From a virus: a DNA stretch of 5,828 bases. This document shows, in pieces, positions 1 to 5,828 of the stretch. The notes beneath the pieces are model-generated. The model was given only the letters and a program-made list of their open reading frames with translations, searched no databases and had not been told where the DNA came from. Positions within the stretch are counted from its first letter, which is position 1. Each line of letters starts with the position of its first letter. The stretch spans positions 1 through 5,828 of the IMG/VR virus record IMGVR_UViG_3300045988_017782; one strand, written 5' to 3'. The position numbers and the translations under genes were made by a program.

Positions 1-55
1 TGACAACCTTCGATGCAGGCAAGCTGATTCCATTCTACGTAGATGAAGTATTACC
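1..55. repeat. Terminal direct repeat, exact copy of 5774..5828 (circular-contig overlap)
   Basis: Read directly: tgacaaccttcgatgcaggcaagctgattccattctacgtagatgaagtattacc occurs at both window ends. The capsid reading frame runs continuously across the join. Confidence 0.97.
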
Positions 56-1640
56 GGGTGATACTTTCAGCGTGGATACAGCGGCAATCATCCGAATGAC
101 CACACCGAAATATCCCGTTTTCGATGACGCGTACATCGATTTCTATTATTTCTACTGTCCGAACAGGATCCTTTGGGATAACTTCAAAAGATTCATGGGT
201 GAAGCAGACGAAGAACCATGGATGCCGACAAAAACGTACAGTGTGCCAAAAATCAGAATTGTGGGAAACCCAAACGCAGAAAACCAGCCAGAAGCATACA
301 AAGGGCCAAAAACGCAAAGCATCCTAGACTATATGGGAGTACCGACACACCTAAACGAAAAAGAAAACAGCAACGATATTGAAGTCAATGCACTACCAGT
401 AAGAGCATACATCAAAATATGGAACGAATTCTTCAGAGACCAAAACGTAGATAATCCGGCAACATATCAAAAAGGAGATGAAGAAATAAAATACTTCGAC
501 AGAGGAGACAACGGATACGTAGGTGCACAAACCGGAAAAGAATACCTAGACGCATACACAGGCGGCCCATGTCTCCCGGTCTCAAAATTCCACGACTACT
601 TCACGTCATGCCTGCCGTATCCTCAGCGTGGGCCGGAAGTATCAATTGCACTGACAGGAAATGCACCGGTAAGACCATACGAAGATACAAACCTAAAAAA
701 CATAAGCCGCGGAGGAGAAATCAGCTACTTACTGGGAACTCCAAGCGCAACATTAGGATTATCTAATGTGGGTGGAGCAGGGGGTATAGGAAACCCGGTA
801 AAACTGGGCGTAAACGAAGGGAATGAAAACGTCACAGAAAGAAGTGCAGCATACCTGGGCGCAGACCTGCAGAACGTCGAAGCCGCAACCATCAACCAGC
901 TCCGGCAGGCATTCGCAGTTCAGCACTATTACGAAGCACTGGCAAGAGGTGGCAGTCGGTACCGCGAGCAGGTAAGAGCAATTTTTGGTGTAAGCATTAG
1001 CGACAAAACCGTACAGATACCGGAGTATCTGGGTGGTGGACGCTATCACGTGAACATCAATCAGATAATTCAGACCTCAGGACAGCAGACCGAAGCAGAC
1101 ACACCTATCGGTGAAACCGGTGCAATGTCTGTCACGCCTATCAACGAAAGTTCTTTCACGAAAAGTTTTGAGGAGCATGGTTTCGTAATCGGCGTTATGT
1201 GCGTTCGCCATAACCGAAGCTATCAACAGGGACTGGAAAGATTCTGGAGCCGAAGCGACCGCCTCGACTACTATTTCCCGCAGTTCGCAAATTTAGGCGA
1301 ACAACCTGTCAAGAAGAAAGAAATCATGCTGACCGGCACAAGCACAGACGATGAAACATTCGGTTACCAGGAGAGCTGGGCCGAATACCGCATGAAGCCA
1401 GACAGAGTAAGCGGCAAAATGCGGAGCAATGCGGAAGGCACACTGGACTTCTGGCACTATGCAGACAACTACGAAACCGTACCGACACTAAGCCAAGAGT
1501 GGATGAACGAGGGCAAAGCCGAAATTGCAAGAACACTGATTGTTCAGAATGAACCACAATTTTTCGGAGCAATCAGAGTAATGAACAAAACAACGAGGTG
1601 TATGCCGCTGTACAGCGTGCCGGGCCTGGAAAAGCTGTAA
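3..1640 (+). CDS. VP1: Major capsid protein VP1 (phiX174 F-like), C-terminal 545 codons; same gene as 5689..5828 across the circular junction
   Basis: The frame is open from the window edge. Codons 3..71 read TTFDAGKLIPFYVDEVLPGDTFS, upstream of the tracked 72..1640 ORF and in phase with ATG 5689 once the 5,773-nt circle is closed. FDAGxLIPxxxDEVLPGDTF is the conserved N-terminal signature of microvirus capsid proteins. Joined length is 574 aa. Tandem stops TAA TAA lie at 1638..1643. Confidence 0.96.
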   Translation, partial: TTFDAGKLIPFYVDEVLPGDTFSVDTAAIIRMTTPKYPVFDDAYIDFYYFYCPNRILWDNFKRFMGEADEEPWMPTKTYSVPKIRIVGNPNAENQPEAYKGPKTQSILDYMGVPTHLNEKENSNDIEVNALPVRAYIKIWNEFFRDQNVDNPATYQKGDEEIKYFDRGDNGYVGAQTGKEYLDAYTGGPCLPVSKFHDYFTSCLPYPQRGPEVSIALTGNAPVRPYEDTNLKNISRGGEISYLLGTPSATLGLSNVGGAGGIGNPVKLGVNEGNENVTERSAAYLGADLQNVEAATINQLRQAFAVQHYYEALARGGSRYREQVRAIFGVSISDKTVQIPEYLGGGRYHVNINQIIQTSGQQTEADTPIGETGAMSVTPINESSFTKSFEEHGFVIGVMCVRHNRSYQQGLERFWSRSDRLDYYFPQFANLGEQPVKKKEIMLTGTSTDDETFGYQESWAEYRMKPDRVSGKMRSNAEGTLDFWHYADNYETVPTLSQEWMNEGKAEIARTLIVQNEPQFFGAIRVMNKTTRCMPLYSVPGLEKL

Positions 1641-1654
1641 TAAAGAAAGGAGGA

Positions 1655-1680
1655 AGCCCGGAGAAATCCGGGCTATTTTA
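1655..1680 (+). terminator. Hairpin after VP1 (weak intrinsic terminator or attenuator; also part of a possible split RBS for VP2)
   Basis: A perfect 7-bp stem joins AGCCCGG (1655..1661) to CCGGGCT (1668..1674) with loop AGAAAT. It is followed by ATTTTA, a T-run of only 4, so termination is probably partial. Confidence 0.5.
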
Positions 1681-1682
1681 TA

Positions 1683-2498
1683 ATGACAGGAATAGGAGCA
1701 ACGCTAGCAAAGGCCGGAACATGGCTTGCAAGTCATCCAGAAGTCGTAACCACAGGAATGTCACTAATTGGCAACGGACTATCAAACTACTTTGGACAGA
1801 AAAGCGAAAACCAGAGCCAAGGAAGCAACATGAGCCAGAGCCAAGGCGGGGGACAAAGCACATCCATGAGCGAGGGCGGCACAAACGACCAGCAAATTAT
1901 GGACTACCTCAACAGATACTATCAATGGCAGGGCGGACAAAACGCATTCCAGAGCAAAACAAACAGGCAAAACATGTTAATGCAGATGGGCTATAACACG
2001 CTAGGAGCAATTCAGCAGGGAATTTATAACCACATCGAGCAAAACGCGGCAATGTCGTACAACAGCGCCGAAGCACTGGCTAACAGAAACTTCCAAGAGC
2101 GTATGAGCAATACAGCATACCAAAGAGCGGTAGCAGACATGCGAAAAGCAGGGCTGAACCCGATTTTGGCATACGCACAAGGCGGCGCAAGCACGCCGGG
2201 AGGCTCAGGCGCAACAATCACAGGCGCAAGCATGGGAATGCCAGCATCAAGCGCCCTGGGAGTATCTACGCTAAATGGCAACGTGCCAAACAGCTACTTT
2301 AACCGATCTGAAAGTAAGTCACAGTGGTACCAGCTAGCAGAAGCCGTGGGCAGTCAAATGAGTTCAGGCTATAGCAGTCCAGTACAGCTGACAGAAGACT
2401 TACTCAAAACCTATAAACAAATGGAAAATACAGACAAAACCGTACCGTTTGAAGCAGGTGGAGGCAAATTCCATACAGGAGGAGGAAGAAAAAAGTGA
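1683..2498 (+). CDS. VP2: Minor capsid / DNA pilot protein VP2 (phiX174 H analogue)
   Basis: 271-aa ORF directly after VP1. The motif [22 protein letters not shown] (nt 2109..2174) is the conserved core I recognise from gokushovirus VP2 proteins. It also has a Q/S/G low-complexity N-terminal third and a Gly-rich C-terminus. Confidence 0.88.
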
Positions 2499-3514
2499 GT
2501 TGTTACAAGCCATTAATAAGGCTGTACAACCCGGACAACAAGGAAATCAGCGGACGAGTGTATTCACTCGCCCGCTTTTCTCAGATAAGCGGGAAACAGC
2601 TAAAGTATGAAGATTTGATGTATAATCCGAAAGTTATGTTAATACCATGCGGGCAATGTATTGGATGCAGAATCCGACAGCGTGAGGACTGGACAACACG
2701 AATCGAGCTAGAAGCAAGAGATTACCCAAAAGAACAAGTATGGTTTATCACACTAACTTATGATGATGAGCATATACCAGGCATGATAGTAAAAACAGGT
2801 GAAATCATGCGAAAAGTACAGTACACATGGAAGCCAGGAGAGAAGCGTCCAGACAGCGTACAAATTCTACTATATGAGGATATTCAAAAATTCTTAAAAC
2901 GTCTCAGGAAAGCTTACAGGGGCAAATTACGCTATTTTGTAGCGGGTGAATACGGAGAGCAAACAGCGAGACCGCACTATCACATGATACTGTACGGTTG
3001 GAAACCGACAGACCTAGAAAATCTATACAAAATCCATCACAACGGATACTATAACAGCAAGTGGCTGGCAGACCTATGGGGCATGGGTCAGATACAAATA
3101 GCACAGGCGGTTCCAGAAACCTATAGATATGTTGCAGGATACGTTACAAAAAAAATGTACAAGATAGACGGAAAGAAAGCCAATGTGTACTACGAATTGG
3201 GACAAACGAAGCCTTTTGCATGCATGAGCTTAAAGCCAGGCCTCGGAGATCGCTATTATCAAGAGCACAAAGCAGAGATCTGGAGACAAGGGTACATTCA
3301 ATGCACCAACGGAAAACAGGCACAAATTCCAAGATACTACGAAAAACAGATGGAAGCAGAAAACCCACAAAGACTATGGAGAATCAAACAGAACCGTCAG
3401 CTGAGAGCTATAGAGCAAAAAAAGCTTCAGTTGGAAAATCAGGAATATAAAACAGTCCTAGAGACAAAAGAACGTGTCATCAAAAAACAGACGAAAAAGC
3501 GTGGTATTTTATAA
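2495..3514 (+). CDS. VP4: Rolling-circle replication initiator VP4 (HUH endonuclease, phiX174 A-like)
   Basis: GTG start at 2495 overlaps the VP2 stop (GTGA). The SD GGAGGAGG lies at 2479..2486. Rep motifs: CGQCIGCR cysteine cluster (aa 52-59), motif 1 FITLTYD (from nt 2744), HUH motif [10 protein letters not shown] (His 161 at nt 2975), and two-tyrosine motif 3 YVAGYVTKK (Tyr 212 at nt 3128, Tyr 216 at nt 3140). Confidence 0.95.
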
Positions 3515-3527
3515 TTGGTGTCACCTA

Positions 3528-3557
3528 GCCCAGTACCTATCAAGTAAGGTACTGGGC
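3528..3557 (+). terminator. Perfect 11-bp stem-loop just after VP4 (putative terminator of the long rightward transcript, or another structural signal)
   Basis: GCCCAGTACCT (3528..3538) is the exact reverse complement of AGGTACTGGGC (3547..3557), with the 8-nt loop ATCAAGTA. It is followed by ATTATTATTC, T-containing but not a clean U-tract. Confidence 0.55.
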
Positions 3558-3571
3558 ATTATTATTCTAAT

Positions 3572-3621
3572 CGCGCACACACGTACACGCGAAAAGTACA
3601 CGCGCACGCGTGCGCACGTAT
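3572..3621. repeat. CpG-dense alternating pyrimidine-purine tracts with internal palindrome and direct repeats
   Basis: 3572..3591 (20 nt) and 3596..3621 (26 nt) alternate Y-R without a break, separated by AAAA. GTACACGCG occurs twice (3583..3591, 3596..3604). A perfect 14-bp palindrome GCGCACGCGTGCGC lies at 3602..3615. Confidence 0.9.
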
Positions 3622-3657
3622 TATAATATAACTTGTTGTAGTCGTAGTAGTAGAGTA

Positions 3658-3821
3658 TGTTGAAAAGTAGAAAAGTATAATTTTAAAACGTTAGAGCGTT
3701 AAAAATAAACAAAAAACAATGTTGAAAGATTTGTTGAAAACTTGTTGAATTGTTGAAACACTCTATTGTGCTAAAGTTTAACAATGTTGAAATGTTGAAA
3801 ACTATGTTGAAAATGTTGAAA
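3658..3821 (+). repeat. Iteron-like array: nine direct copies of TGTTGAA(A/T)
   Basis: Copies at 3658..3665, 3720..3727, 3732..3739, 3743..3750 (TGTTGAAT), 3751..3758, 3785..3792, 3793..3800, 3805..3812 and 3814..3821, all in one orientation. The two 4-copy clusters each open with AACAATGTTGAAA (3715..3727, 3780..3792). No ORF longer than about 9 codons crosses the array. Confidence 0.9.
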
Positions 3822-3860
3822 AGCCAATAGAAGCGGTCCGGAATCGAGCGGGAAAGTCAC

Positions 3861-3907
3861 GGCCGCGCTTCGCTGGAAGTTGCGCCGCGTAGCGCGCAAC
3901 GGCGGCC
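3861..3907. other. GC-rich nested inverted repeats (candidate ssDNA structural element)
   Basis: Outer 6-bp stem: GGCCGC (3861..3866) with GCGGCC (3902..3907). Inner 7-bp stem: GTTGCGC (3879..3885) with GCGCAAC (3894..3900), loop of 8 nt. A small CTTC/GAAG hairpin lies at 3868..3879. This is a GC island inside an otherwise AT-rich intergenic region. Confidence 0.5.
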
Positions 3908-3945
3908 ATTCAATGAAAAGTTCTGCAAAAACTTCGAAAAAAAAC

Positions 3946-3974
3946 TTGACAAAATCCAAAAAATATGATAGAAT
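3946..3974 (+). promoter_or_regulatory. Near-consensus sigma70/sigmaA promoter with extended -10 (P1)
   Basis: -35 TTGACA at 3946..3951, a 17-nt spacer, TG at 3966..3967, and -10 TAGAAT at 3969..3974. An A-rich, UP-like stretch lies upstream (3929..3944). An SD and ATG follow within 30 nt. Confidence 0.75.
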
Positions 3975-4001
3975 ATAATCAGAGAAAGGAAGGTGTCAAA
4001 G

Positions 4002-4181
4002 ATGACGCACACATACGAACTTAAAAAATTTGAAGATGACGGAAGCATAACCACGGTACTAAAACTCAGCGCAGAACCAAAATATGCAAAACAAAGAGCG
4101 GAAGATTACGCAAGTAGACATCCCGGAATGTACAGCCTAGAAAAAACAGAAACAGTAAAAATGTACTTTAACCGGGGTTGA
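4002..4181 (+). CDS. Hypothetical 59-aa protein (accessory; own promoter and terminator)
   Basis: ATG at 4002 lies 8 nt after the SD AAAGGAAGG (3985..3993). I prefer it to the in-frame GTG at 3993, which sits inside the SD. No transmembrane segment and no motif I recognise. The gene is bracketed by P1 and a canonical terminator. Confidence 0.7.
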   Translation: MTHTYELKKFEDDGSITTVLKLSAEPKYAKQRAEDYASRHPGMYSLEKTETVKMYFNRG

Positions 4182-4198
4182 CAGCCCCGGTTTTTTTT
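4170..4198 (+). terminator. Canonical rho-independent terminator
   Basis: An 8-bp stem joins AACCGGGG (4170..4177) to CCCCGGTT (4185..4192) with the 7-nt loop TTGACAG. A run of 8 T follows (4191..4198). The stop codon TGA (4179..4181) sits in the loop. Confidence 0.85.
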
Positions 4199-4206
4199 GG
4201 TACAAT
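4178..4206 (+). promoter_or_regulatory. Second near-consensus promoter with extended -10 (P2), embedded in the terminator
   Basis: -35 TTGACA at 4178..4183 (the terminator loop), a 17-nt spacer (4184..4200), TG at 4198..4199, and -10 TACAAT at 4201..4206. The leader AGAGAAAGGAAG (4217..4228) is identical to the one after P1 (3981..3992). Confidence 0.65.
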
Positions 4207-4233
4207 TCGAAATAGAAGAGAAAGGAAGCCTAC

Positions 4234-4617
4234 ATGAAGCACATAATTTTTATGAAAGCAGAGTACGGGCAGGTTAGCCCGCACTTCAAAGCAAAAGAAT
4301 TTCAGTCCAAAGACAAAAGCAAATATCTGTTAATCGCATCAGAGCTAATCGAAACACTGGAAACAATTAGGGAACATTTCAATGCGCCTATTACAATCAA
4401 CAGCGGATACCGTACACCGAACTGGAATGCAAAAGTAGGTGGAGCGCCAAATTCATACCACTGCAAAGGGATGGCGGCAGATATCGTAGTAAAAGGACAT
4501 GGCAGTCAAGAAGTCGCAAAATACGCAGATAGCATCATGAAGCAAGGCGGCGTGATAAGATACACAAACTTTACTCACATTGATGTGCGTGAAGAACGAT
4601 ACAGAAAGGGGGTGTAA
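4234..4617 (+). CDS. Zinc D-Ala-D-Ala / peptidoglycan peptidase, M15 family (Peptidase_M15_3-like; putative endolysin)
   Basis: 127-aa ORF with SD GGAAG 5 nt upstream. The signature SGYRTPNWNAKVGGAPNSYHCKGMAADI plus FTHIDVR matches the LAS-type zinc site H-x6-D ... H (His 76 at nt 4459, Asp 83 at nt 4480, His 115 at nt 4576). No signal peptide or transmembrane helix. Confidence 0.88.
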   Translation: MKHIIFMKAEYGQVSPHFKAKEFQSKDKSKYLLIASELIETLETIREHFNAPITINSGYRTPNWNAKVGGAPNSYHCKGMAADIVVKGHGSQEVAKYADSIMKQGGVIRYTNFTHIDVREERYRKGV

Positions 4618-4620
4618 CCT

Positions 4621-4725
4621 ATGGCATTGATTAAAGTCAAAGACCTTCGAGAAGCAATCCAGCTAATTAAAACCGTTCTGGAAAAGCTCGACCAGATTTA
4701 TCACATCCTGAAGGAAAAGGAGTAA
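4621..4725 (+). CDS. Hypothetical 34-aa protein (below the ORF-track threshold)
   Basis: ATG at 4621 lies 3 nt after the peptidase stop and is preceded by AGAAAGGGGGTG. The product is MALIKVKDLREAIQLIKTVLEKLDQIYHILKEKE, with an amphipathic-helix pattern. Its last codons supply the SD (AAGGAAAAGGAG) for the next gene, filling the gap exactly. Confidence 0.5.
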   Translation: MALIKVKDLREAIQLIKTVLEKLDQIYHILKEKE

Positions 4726-4728
4726 AAC

Positions 4729-4974
4729 ATGATGAACAAGACATGGAATGTACGAGACCAGACCGAAGAAGATCTCAGAGTAGAGGCCGAAAGACTATAC
4801 AAGCAGATAGAAGCTGGGTACAAAATGGTAAAAAAAGTATCCAAGCTAGAAGATGCCGAAAAGCTCATTGAACGAATCTGGGTAATGAAGAAATGGGCCA
4901 ATGACATCGAAATGGAGCTAATCAGAAGGGAGTACACATATGAAACACAGACAGAGGATGCCGGTACGCACTGA
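4729..4974 (+). CDS. Hypothetical 81-aa protein (charged, helical or coiled-coil character)
   Basis: ATG at 4729 lies 6 nt after the SD GGAG. No recognisable motif. The 3' end overlaps the start of the next gene by 35 nt in a different frame. Confidence 0.7.
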   Translation: MMNKTWNVRDQTEEDLRVEAERLYKQIEAGYKMVKKVSKLEDAEKLIERIWVMKKWANDIEMELIRREYTYETQTEDAGTH

Positions 4975-5059
4975 CAAACGGATGTTCAACGTGACGGCGC
5001 GCAAAACGAAGAGTATCAATTTAAGCCAGAAGCCCATGCGGGGCGGAATCAGACTGTAA
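4940..5059 (+). CDS. Small basic DNA-binding / packaging protein (phiX174 J / gokushovirus ORF8-like), 39 aa
   Basis: Not in the ORF track. ATG at 4940 lies 7 nt after the SD AGAAGGGAG. The product is MKHRQRMPVRTDKRMFNVTARKTKSINLSQKPMRGGIRL. The K/R-rich N-terminus, central RxFxxTA ... K.INL and C-terminal MRGGIRL match the pattern I recognise from gokushovirus ORF8-type proteins. Confidence 0.8.
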   Translation: MKHRQRMPVRTDKRMFNVTARKTKSINLSQKPMRGGIRL

Positions 5060-5071
5060 AGGAGAAAAAAA

Positions 5072-5314
5072 ATGATTCACGGATACTATGGCATCTATGA
5101 CAGCGTAGCAAAGTGCTACTGCTACATCGGAGAAAGCAAGAGCAACGAGACCTTTGCGCGAATGTGCAATATCATGGCAAAAGACGAGAAAACGTTCCTG
5201 GGGCAGTCACCCGAAGACTACAAAGGCTACCATATCGCAAACTTCAACGATGAAGCCGGGAGCTTCGAAAGCATCGAACCGGAAAAGGTCTGGGAGGGCA
5301 AGCCGAATGAATAA
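5072..5314 (+). CDS. VP5-like small non-structural protein (80 aa)
   Basis: Strong SD AAAGGAG lies upstream. The pattern YGIYDSVAKCY ... FARM ... SPEDYKGYHIANFNDEAG resembles the (V/I)YDxKA ... AxRxF ... PEDYxLxxIGxFDxxxG pattern I recall for gokushovirus VP5-type proteins. The functional label is from memory only. Confidence 0.75.
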   Translation: MIHGYYGIYDSVAKCYCYIGESKSNETFARMCNIMAKDEKTFLGQSPEDYKGYHIANFNDEAGSFESIEPEKVWEGKPNE

Positions 5315-5702
5315 AAGATACGAGGAAGGCCGCGAGGCCTTCTTTTCAAATCCAGGCGAGAAACTGCGTAAGCAGTACGTCTGGGGAAAAGACGAAAAAG
5401 GCAACAAAAAGTTGATTGAAACCGAGCCAATCGACATTCAGGGCGAAATTGAAAGCTATGCAGATGAATGCGACATTAAAAACATTGTCCGCAAAGCAAG
5501 TTTTGACCCTGTTTTTGCCAAAAGTCTAGTAGACAGCGCAAAAACAGATGAAATCGTGGATGTCACCGAATGGCCGACCAACATTCACGAGTATCACGCC
5601 ATGATGGCAACAGCACAAGCCAATGCAATGGAACTGCAGAGGATGCAGGAAAAGGCCGCAAACGAGAAAAAGAAGCAGGAGGGAAGCAATGAACCGGAAT
5701 AA
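5307..5702 (+). CDS. VP3: Internal scaffolding protein VP3 (131 aa)
   Basis: I prefer ATG at 5307, preceded by GGGAGGG at 5292..5298, over the tracked 5154 start. The 5154 start would overlap the VP5-like gene by about 160 nt and has no SD. The ESYADECDIKNIV motif resembles the conserved ECDINNI(V/L) block of gokushovirus VP3, and the C-terminus is acidic/basic. It ends 14 nt into VP1. Confidence 0.88.
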   Translation: MNKRYEEGREAFFSNPGEKLRKQYVWGKDEKGNKKLIETEPIDIQGEIESYADECDIKNIVRKASFDPVFAKSLVDSAKTDEIVDVTEWPTNIHEYHAMMATAQANAMELQRMQEKAANEKKKQEGSNEPE

Positions 5703-5828
5703 CGAAAGACACTTCAACCAAGTACCGGAAACGCACGTCAGCCGAACACGCTTCAACCGAGACCAGAACATTCTGACAACCTTCGATGCAGGCAAGCTGA
5801 TTCCATTCTACGTAGATGAAGTATTACC
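5689..5828 (+). CDS. VP1: Major capsid protein VP1, N-terminal part (continues at position 3 after circularisation)
   Basis: ATG at 5689 lies 5 nt after the SD AGGAGGG (5677..5683). The product begins MNRNNERHFNQVPETHVSRTRFNRDQNILTTFDAGKLIPFYVDEVLP. The frame is open to the window end and in phase with 3..1640. Confidence 0.95.
   Translation, partial: MNRNNERHFNQVPETHVSRTRFNRDQNILTTFDAGKLIPFYVDEVL
5774..5828. repeat. Terminal direct repeat, exact copy of 1..55
   Basis: See feature 1..55. Confidence 0.97.

Follow-up and report, generated by a model that had tools for sequence, protein, structure and literature searches.

The DNA analysed here (the window) is a 5,828-nt stretch, positions 1 to 5,828 of the IMG/VR record IMGVR_UViG_3300045988_017782, and represents a circularly closed gokushovirus genome. 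In the nonstructural accessory region, between the genes for VP4 and VP5, it carries a gene for a 127-aa protein that we identify as a stand-alone catalytic domain of the Peptidase_M15_3 family. The protein is most likely the lysis endolysin of the phage, i.e., a wall peptidase of the type found in Clostridia prophages. All 86 genomes of the gokushovirus clade to which the window belongs encode the enzyme, and none of them has a recognizable membrane protein to go with it.

The peptidase is an intact M15_3 catalytic domain

The open reading frame (ORF) that a previous sequence-only reading had described at positions 4234 to 4617 (+ strand) was present, and the four motifs it had quoted as an M15 signature were found in place: S57-G-Y-R60, N65-A-K-V-G-G70, S74-x-H76-x-x-G79-x-A81-x-D83, and F113-x-H115-x-D117-V-R119. 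Among the profiles which that reading had named for a check, Peptidase_M15_3 (PF08291) was matched far beyond chance and above its curated threshold (E = 2.3e-24; 86.1 bits versus a cutoff of 23.2; profile positions 25 to 108 of 108), while the Pfam scan gave no match of the protein to VanY (PF02557) or Peptidase_M15_4 (PF13539) at E ≤ 0.1. Peptidase_M15_2 (DUF882) was passed marginally, with 31.2 bits against a cutoff of 27. PHROG 894, "endolysin," matched with an E value of 3.8e-39. The gene carries the Joint Genome Institute (JGI) label "YcbK (DUF882 family)," which is a name at the family level and does not denote orthology, since the protein scores 46.7 bits with the MepK L,D-endopeptidase equivalog (NCBIfam NF053624), below the cutoff of 185, and the M15_2 pass is marginal.

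The sole solved structure matched by sequence was 1LBU (E = 4.4e-6; profile E = 1.2e-8), the zinc D-Ala-D-Ala carboxypeptidase of Streptomyces albus G and M15A type enzyme, whose NSRH...AAD block aligns with the S-x-H-x-x-G-x-A-A-D block of the peptidase (H76 and D83). A PDB search with the C-terminal half alone, aimed at placing the H-x-D motif on 1LBU, returned nothing relevant. An AlphaFold2 model computed from a 47-homolog alignment (predicted local distance difference test [pLDDT] score of 96.5, predicted template modeling [pTM] score of 0.89) also had 1LBU as its first Foldseek match in the PDB (E = 5.4e-5, 30% identity, root mean square deviation of 2.0 over 87 columns). Further PDB matches were Hedgehog-N, VanY, VanXY, Ply500, LysB4, ChiX, and LysECD7; among the viral models of BFVD, the search returned M15A peptidases from microviruses and tailed phages. 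The structure prediction thus gave the LAS (Hedgehog/DD-peptidase) fold, and Pfam PF08291, PHROG 894, and the Foldseek match to 1LBU agree on the M15 membership that had been proposed from the letters alone. Overall, the data identify the protein as a Peptidase_M15_3 / MEROPS M15A catalytic domain of the LAS fold.

Sequence and fold thus both point to 1LBU as the nearest solved structure, but the Streptomyces enzyme is a secreted protein of 213 aa with an extra N-terminal domain, and its substrate specificity is not transferable to the phage protein. Judging from the model, the Hedgehog/DD-peptidase fold and the His-Asp-His metal site architecture appear to be shared with Ply500 (2VO9), LysB4 (6AKV), LysECD7 (8Q2G), Serratia ChiX (5OPZ), VanY, and VanXY. 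These LAS enzymes, however, belong to other Pfam subfamilies (VanY, M15_4), and their Foldseek E values were only 0.01 to 0.1.

The proposed metal-binding and catalytic residues are His76, Asp83, His115, and Asp117, with H115 and D117 as the candidates for the third metal ligand; Arg60 is also invariant. Across the 47 aligned homologs (25 to 88% identity), the invariant positions were F18, R46, S57, R60, N65, G70, S74, H76, A81, D83, H115, and D117, and the four proposed active-site residues were kept in 94 of 94 related microvirus contigs, none with an internal stop, which bears out the catalytic assignment of the sequence-only reading. Substitutions are more frequent at the third codon position than at the second (0.43 versus 0.16), a pattern indicative of purifying selection. 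Hydrolysis of peptidoglycan stem peptides and zinc binding are the predicted properties of the enzyme.

The protein database contained 864 clusters matching at E ≤ 1e-5. Identity to the peptidase was 76 to 88% among the best 120, nearly all of which lay on contigs of ~5.5 to 5.9 kb; some metagenomic matches, with up to 88% identity, bore the name "peptidase [Microviridae sp.]." The GenBank phage collection contained 593 matching records, including many Microviridae, "Gokushovirus," "bajarodmic," and "Dulem virus" entries, several of them already annotated as "peptidase M15" or "peptidase."

The JGI gene call starts at Met7 and gives a product of 121 aa. The 127-aa product from Met1 is the better call because Met1 is conserved in the relatives as part of an MK(H/N)(I/V) N terminus, position 7 is Ile or Val in those relatives that were displayed, and residues 4 to 8 form a β-strand in the predicted fold. 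At another position outside the catalytic center, Ser25 (4306 to 4308), more than 90% of the homologs have Cys (E-F-x-C), and the equivalent Cys in tailed-phage homologs belongs to a C-x-C-G-C-G cluster; the peptidase may have lost an accessory metal or disulfide site here.

Homologs in Clostridia prophages and tailed phages come with an export device

Cellular homologs were sought in one genome per prokaryotic species, with an alignment of closer homologs as the query. The closest ones, 50 to 55% identical to the peptidase, came mainly from gut Clostridia (Eubacteriaceae, Dysosmobacter, Oscillibacter sp. 1-3, Lachnospiraceae, and Ruminococcaceae). Some were the C-terminal module of endolysins of 283 to 354 aa, fused to NAGPA (Oscillibacter sp. 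1-3, Dysosmobacter), GH25 (Lachnospiraceae), or phage lysozyme (a Bacilli metagenome-assembled genome [MAG]) and encoded next to Phage_r1t_holin, Phage_holin_6_1, or Phage_holin_4_1 genes. Others were stand-alone domains flanked by ORFs with two transmembrane (TM) segments (Geosporobacter) or parts of large, signal-peptide-bearing secreted proteins. Tailed-phage homologs in IMG/VR lay between TM holin-like and lipobox spanin-like ORFs, and one of them had its own N-terminal signal-anchor (hydropathy of 2.06). The microvirus shares the Pfam domain with the Clostridia endolysins, but these have a second muralytic domain and an adjacent holin gene, whereas the microvirus has the 127-aa domain alone in a genome without a holin. 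By this comparison, its gene appears to be the bare catalytic domain of a module that elsewhere comes with an export device. That the closest homologs are the catalytic domains of Clostridia prophage endolysins encoded beside holins, or sit in the holin/spanin cassettes of tailed phages, favors the endolysin-type function suggested by the sequence-only reading.

The host is probably a member of the Clostridia. Strong Shine-Dalgarno sites precede 9 of the 11 genes of the genome, which fits Bacillota and argues against Bacteroidota. A microvirus-sized contig of 5,840 nt with a 59%-identical peptidase (CALBJK010000280.1) is binned in an "uncultured Prevotella sp." MAG; because the lineage uses strong Shine-Dalgarno sites, this placement is probably a binning artifact rather than evidence of the host. 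We know of no microvirus yet cultured on a walled member of the Bacillota.

The genome encodes no holin, export signal, or membrane partner

The N terminus of the peptidase (MKHIIFMKAEYGQ...) has no hydrophobic core. Neither a signal peptide nor a signal-arrest-release (SAR) signal-anchor was found on the protein, the best 10-mer having a hydropathy of 0.32 and residues 4 to 8 being a strand of the fold. Maximum Kyte-Doolittle hydropathy over 19 residues was −0.23 for ORF62, 0.70 for ORF34, 0.00 for ORF81, and −0.55 for ORF39; on the same scale, phiX174 E reaches 2.79 and a relative's genuine small membrane ORF 2.33. The neighboring 59-, 34-, and 81-aa ORFs had been said to lack a hydrophobic helix, in agreement with these values.

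A stop-to-stop scan of the whole circular genome returned no coding-strand ORF with a hydropathy of at least 1.6 and a single coding-strand stretch of at least 1.4 (positions 3462 to 3623, 1.56). The corresponding 50-aa ORF (3474 to 3626) was rejected as a hidden membrane partner, its hydrophobic part being the translation of a DNA hairpin (3528 to 3557) and a T-rich tail. Hairpin and tail are unchanged at all three codon positions in ten relatives and are followed by frame-breaking indels, from which it follows that this stretch is a cis-acting DNA element and not a gene. Hydrophobic ORFs overprinted in VP1, seen in several relatives, were likewise discarded, as stop codons interrupt them in most genomes, the window included. 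Those on the minus strand were disregarded, all recognized genes being on the + strand and the T-rich complement of an A-rich coding strand yielding spurious ones.

Extended to the relatives, the search found no membrane ORF in the accessory region of the 87 peptidase-carrying genomes of the lineage (of which 86 fall within the clade as defined by VP4 below) and no conserved hydrophobic overprinted ORF of the phiX174 E type on the coding strand of the window and its relatives. The lack of a holin, signal peptide, and TM partner reported from the single sequence is thereby confirmed for the whole genome and the relatives. In terms of a canonical holin-endolysin system, the window genome contains a muralytic enzyme, as recognized by homology, and no small TM protein that would qualify as the holin.

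A sister clade lacks the peptidase and often has a small membrane ORF

To compare genomes with and without the enzyme, we used 129 near-complete genomes anchored on the peptidase or ORF81. The clade of the window was defined by VP4 sequences at least 70% identical to that of the window; in the sister clade, VP4 is ~54% identical to it. The peptidase was present in 86/86 genomes of the window's clade, with a membrane ORF in 0, and absent from 34/34 sister-clade genomes, 20 of which have a small single-pass membrane ORF. This ORF encodes 32 to 38 aa and ends just before VP5 (e.g., L052:4554-4661 in KT264789, MIAVGTGATIIAMCSAAFALIAMGIDIIKNWRKSK). Its homologs, found in L110 to L146, are unannotated and share the C-terminal motif IDIIK-N/D-W. 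This ORF could encode a single-gene lysis protein or a holin, and the distribution is compatible with the peptidase and the small membrane protein being alternative lysis modules.

The flanking small ORFs belong to the lineage backbone

In 45 relatives, ORF34 was open in 39 and ORF81 in 41, both with an excess of third-position substitutions, and ORF34 was often better conserved than the peptidase. The gene order peptidase, ORF34, ORF81, ORF39, VP5, VP3 is kept in the relatives. Both ORFs are genuine genes, and both belong to the lineage backbone. The sequence-only reading had suggested that they might form an unconventional release system for the peptidase, but the idea of a peptidase-specific cassette is rejected: ORF34-like peptides occur in several peptidase-less genomes, ORF81 homologs occur throughout the peptidase-less sister clade, and the ORF81 family is far more widespread than the peptidase (4,558 versus 864 clusters, all of the former on microvirus-sized contigs and all unannotated). 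A role of either product in membrane damage is nevertheless conceivable. ORF34 and the sister-clade membrane ORF are not mutually exclusive alternatives either, given that they co-occur in 8 genomes.

ORF34 starts 4 nt downstream of the peptidase gene and adjoins it in 85 of the 86 clade genomes. The peptide is a single amphipathic helix with a hydrophobic moment of 0.68 (equaled by just 1.2% of shuffles), a mean hydrophobicity of 0.02, and a net charge of +1; the values for delta-lysin are 0.66, 0.06, and +1. Its a/d heptad pattern is just as consistent with a soluble coiled coil, and it has no Pfam, PHROG, or NCBIfam match. ORF81 is predicted to be a soluble two-helix hairpin protein (AlphaFold2 pLDDT of 90.2; helices 13 to 36 and 40 to 78). 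A search of the PDB with this fold gave nothing significant, the best match being the ESCRT-III CHMP4B hairpin (29% identity, E = 0.36). Residues W6, N7, R9, D10, and Q11 of ORF81 are invariant, and the family has the motif I-W...K...A-N-x-I-E.

On the other side of the peptidase, the nonhydrophobic ORF59/62 was found in 15 of the 45 relatives and in one peptidase-less genome, and it matched nothing in Pfam, PHROG, or NCBIfam. It is flanked by a near-consensus extended −10 promoter-like site (3946 to 3974) and by the hairpin with T8 at 4170 to 4200, and looks like a sporadic, self-contained mini-cassette. The 39-aa ORF shares 35 nt with the end of ORF81, has a net charge of +11, and is kept in 45/45 relatives; it is probably a J/VP8-type DNA-binding protein.

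Genome layout and DNA elements around the peptidase gene

A 55-bp terminal direct repeat (window positions 1 to 55 = 5774 to 5828) establishes the genome as circular, with a length of 5,773 nt. All recognizable genes are on the + strand (Table 1). In GenBank, the records closest to it come from gut gokushoviruses in human, pig, and monkey feces, with 75 to 80% nucleotide identity over part of the genome only.

Table 1 Genes and DNA elements of the window (stop codon counted in the end coordinate of the peptidase)
Feature	Position	Strand	Remarks
VP1, major capsid protein	5689 across junction to 1640	+	ATG preceded by AGGAGG
VP2, pilot protein	1683-2498	+	
VP4, replication initiator	2495-3514	+	
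Noncoding region	between VP4 and ORF59/62		~480 nt
ORF59/62	3993 or 4002 to 4181	+	59/62 aa
Putative intrinsic-terminator-like hairpin	4170..4200	+	AACCGGGGTTG / CAGCCCCGGTT, then T8; between ORF59/62 and peptidase
Promoter-like site	4178..4206	+	TTGACA, 17-nt spacer, TACAAT, TG before −10; consensus scan, 11/12 matches
Shine-Dalgarno-like site	4221..4228	+	AAAGGAAG; read from the sequence, ends 5 nt before peptidase ATG
Peptidase	4234-4617	+	127 aa
ORF34	4621-4725	+	34 aa
ORF81	4729-4974	+	81 aa
Basic protein (phrog_10695)	4940-5059	+	39 aa
VP5	5072-5314	+	
VP3, scaffold	5307-5702	+	

The promoter-like site ahead of the peptidase gene lies 28 nt upstream of the start codon, and its −35 hexamer falls in the loop of the terminator-like hairpin. 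It is a candidate only, as the window contains 9 such sites against 8.3 in shuffles, i.e., no enrichment. Of 42 relatives, 12 have a similar TTGACA...TGATATAAT arrangement ahead of the peptidase gene. The overlap of promoter-like site and terminator-like hairpin, together with its recurrence in the relatives, suggests that the peptidase may be under separate transcriptional control.

The hairpin rejected above as a coding sequence has a perfect 11-bp stem, lies just past the VP4 stop, and is invariant even in a relative with 85% VP4 amino acid identity. CG-rich palindromic repeats follow at 3572 to 3620. The hairpin region (3520 to 3620) might serve as a replication origin, a packaging signal, or a terminator. 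Further downstream in the intergenic region, TGTTGAAA occurs in eight exact + strand copies within 165 nt (3658 to 3821), compared with 0.27 expected from shuffles, and nowhere else in the genome. These repeats form an iteron-like array.

Relation to known microviral lysis enzymes

The presence of an M15 peptidase in a microvirus is not new. In 11 human-associated (gut) Microviridae, 5 of them gokushoviruses, Roux et al. (2012) found M15_3 peptidase genes. They showed that these had been acquired horizontally, with four gokushovirus copies clustering with Faecalibacterium and Anaerofustis (Clostridiales affinity), pointed out prophage homologs lying next to holins, and proposed for the enzyme an endolysin role in which, unlike phiX174 E, it dissolves the wall at the end of infection (PMC3394797). 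The association was repeated by Kirchberger et al. in 2020 and 2022 (PMC9239249, PMC7062461), and a 2024 study found an M15 metallopeptidase in cultured Roseobacter microviruses (PMC11499846). The peptidase and its endolysin interpretation in gut gokushoviruses have thus been known since 2012, so the element of novelty in the sequence-only reading falls away. Compared with the Gokushovirinae/Alpavirinae M15_3 peptidases already on record (Roux et al. 2012; KX513868, KX513877, MG945781), the window has the same Pfam family, habitat, and gene position after VP4 and, with the gut gokushovirus enzymes, the same subfamily, proposed endolysin role, and Clostridiales affinity (45 to 69% identity to the deposited records). 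It differs from these in nothing essential and is another member of the group. The present analysis adds that a membrane ORF is lacking throughout the clade, that the flanking ORFs belong to the backbone, and that the sister clade presents a contrast. We found no explicit treatment of the missing-holin problem in the literature.

The only experimentally verified microviral case is Gp7 of Ebor, a member of the Tainavirinae infecting Rhodobacter capsulatus, which degrades peptidoglycan in zymogram and plate assays (2025; PMC11980548). The statement in the earlier reading that a functional test was not known to it therefore no longer applies to microviral wall hydrolases in general; it stands for gokushovirus M15_3 peptidases, for which our literature search found none. 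Ebor Gp7 is likewise a wall-degrading enzyme encoded by a nonuniversal accessory gene. Ebor differs, however, in its subfamily and Gram-negative host; Gp7 has 146 aa, and the HHpred hit cited by its authors is 6SSC. A predicted membrane protein of 45 aa (Gp1) is also present in Ebor, and the window genome has no counterpart.

With phiX174 E and other single-gene lysis proteins, the window product would share the end point, lysis of a very small phage by one dedicated gene. phiX174 E is a membrane-anchored, nonenzymatic MraY inhibitor overprinted in another gene. The window product, in contrast, is a soluble enzyme, and comparison of the relatives left no overprinted membrane ORF standing.

Function of the peptidase

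The retention of the gene in 86/86 genomes despite the size limit of a 5.8-kb genome, with catalytic residues intact and under apparent purifying selection, indicates an important function. We propose that the ancestor of this gokushovirus clade took up the domain horizontally from an endolysin of the Clostridia prophage kind and that all members have kept it. Cytoplasmic synthesis of the enzyme would come late in infection, and the progeny would be freed as it hydrolyzes peptide bonds in the host wall; in this lineage, the enzyme would stand in for the wall-synthesis inhibitor of the phiX174 type. It would most likely cross the membrane through a noncanonical lesion made by another phage product or upon a general late loss of membrane integrity; ORF34 would be the only candidate lesion-maker with suitable physical chemistry.

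Several points weigh against this interpretation. Neither the window genome nor its 86 relatives have a holin, a SAR or signal sequence, or a coding-strand TM ORF, and the route by which a cytoplasmic endolysin would reach the wall is hypothetical. Activity, substrate, and timing are predictions for the peptidase and its close relatives alike, and the Clostridia host is assigned indirectly. The contrast between peptidase and membrane ORF amounts to one phylogenetic contrast, with 14 of the 34 sister-clade genomes having neither module, and the coding signature of the sister-clade ORF is weak (position differences 61/67/95).

The missing export route would be accounted for if the enzyme, as a kind of catalytic "amurin," stayed in the cytoplasm and cleaved wall precursors (UDP-MurNAc-pentapeptide or inner-leaflet lipid II), e.g., by clipping off the terminal D-Ala or cleaving the stem peptide, such that wall synthesis fails and autolysis follows with no need for a holin; the outcome would resemble that of phiX174 E, Qβ A2, and phage M Lys. 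Small single-stranded DNA (ssDNA) and RNA phages typically lyse their hosts by starving the wall of lipid II, the closest solved structure, 1LBU ("muramoyl-pentapeptide carboxypeptidase"), cleaves D-Ala-D-Ala of the stem peptide, and the fold neighbors VanY and VanXY act on precursor stem peptides. Yet the characterized contexts of the closest homologs are all holin-endolysin cassettes or secreted proteins, which indicates extracytoplasmic action, substrate specificity is not readable from the sequence, and precursor degradation by a phage lysis enzyme would, to our knowledge, be unprecedented, which together make this route improbable. Scarcely more credit attaches to an endolysin assisted by ORF34 as a non-TM holin substitute, permeabilizing the membrane from its inner face like delta-lysin or the phenol-soluble modulins. 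ORF34 is a real, strongly conserved gene, almost always next to the peptidase, and its moment, hydrophobicity, and charge match those of delta-lysin, but the heptad pattern that would equally suit a soluble coiled coil, the homologs in peptidase-less genomes, the co-occurrence with the membrane ORF in the 8 sister-clade genomes, and the lack of family matches leave it unlikely. Lysis without a holin or any other membrane protein, whether by cytoplasmic precursor cleavage or through the amphipathic ORF34, is on the whole rather unlikely.

A function at entry, with a few virion-borne copies opening the wall locally for DNA delivery as virion-associated hydrolases of tailed phages do, is suggested by fold relatives in which M15A domains are fused to Gp5-type tail-spike proteins of tailed phages (Foldseek viral ranks 35, 41, 46, and 49) and by the trace amounts of Ebor Gp7 detected in purified virions (PMC11980548). 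The closest homologs of the window peptidase, however, are in lysis cassettes and not in structural modules, its gene is neither fused to VP1 or VP2 nor linked to them by sequence and lies in the nonstructural accessory region, and related gokushoviruses infect without the enzyme. A T=1 capsid also has little spare room, and an entry enzyme seems quite improbable. Functions outside lysis and entry (a passenger gene, wall remodeling, superinfection exclusion, or killing of competitors after release) would be in line with the finding that gokushoviruses without a recognizable lysis gene still lyse their hosts (PMC7062461), but are hard to reconcile with the universal retention and the selective constraint on a size-limited genome, and we consider them very improbable. 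An endolysin of the Clostridia prophage type thus remains our preferred reading of the gene.

Significance

Gokushoviruses are among the most abundant ssDNA phages of the gut. Throughout the clade examined here, a wall peptidase is kept in 86/86 genomes without a membrane protein or export signal, while in its probable donors the domain is always accompanied by a holin and a sister clade without the enzyme often has a small membrane ORF instead. If holin-free lysis by precursor cleavage or with ORF34 did prove true, it would be a strategy not described for any phage. The finding points to Clostridia as the host group for isolation attempts, and it sharpens the question to how a soluble wall peptidase works in a clade without a membrane protein.

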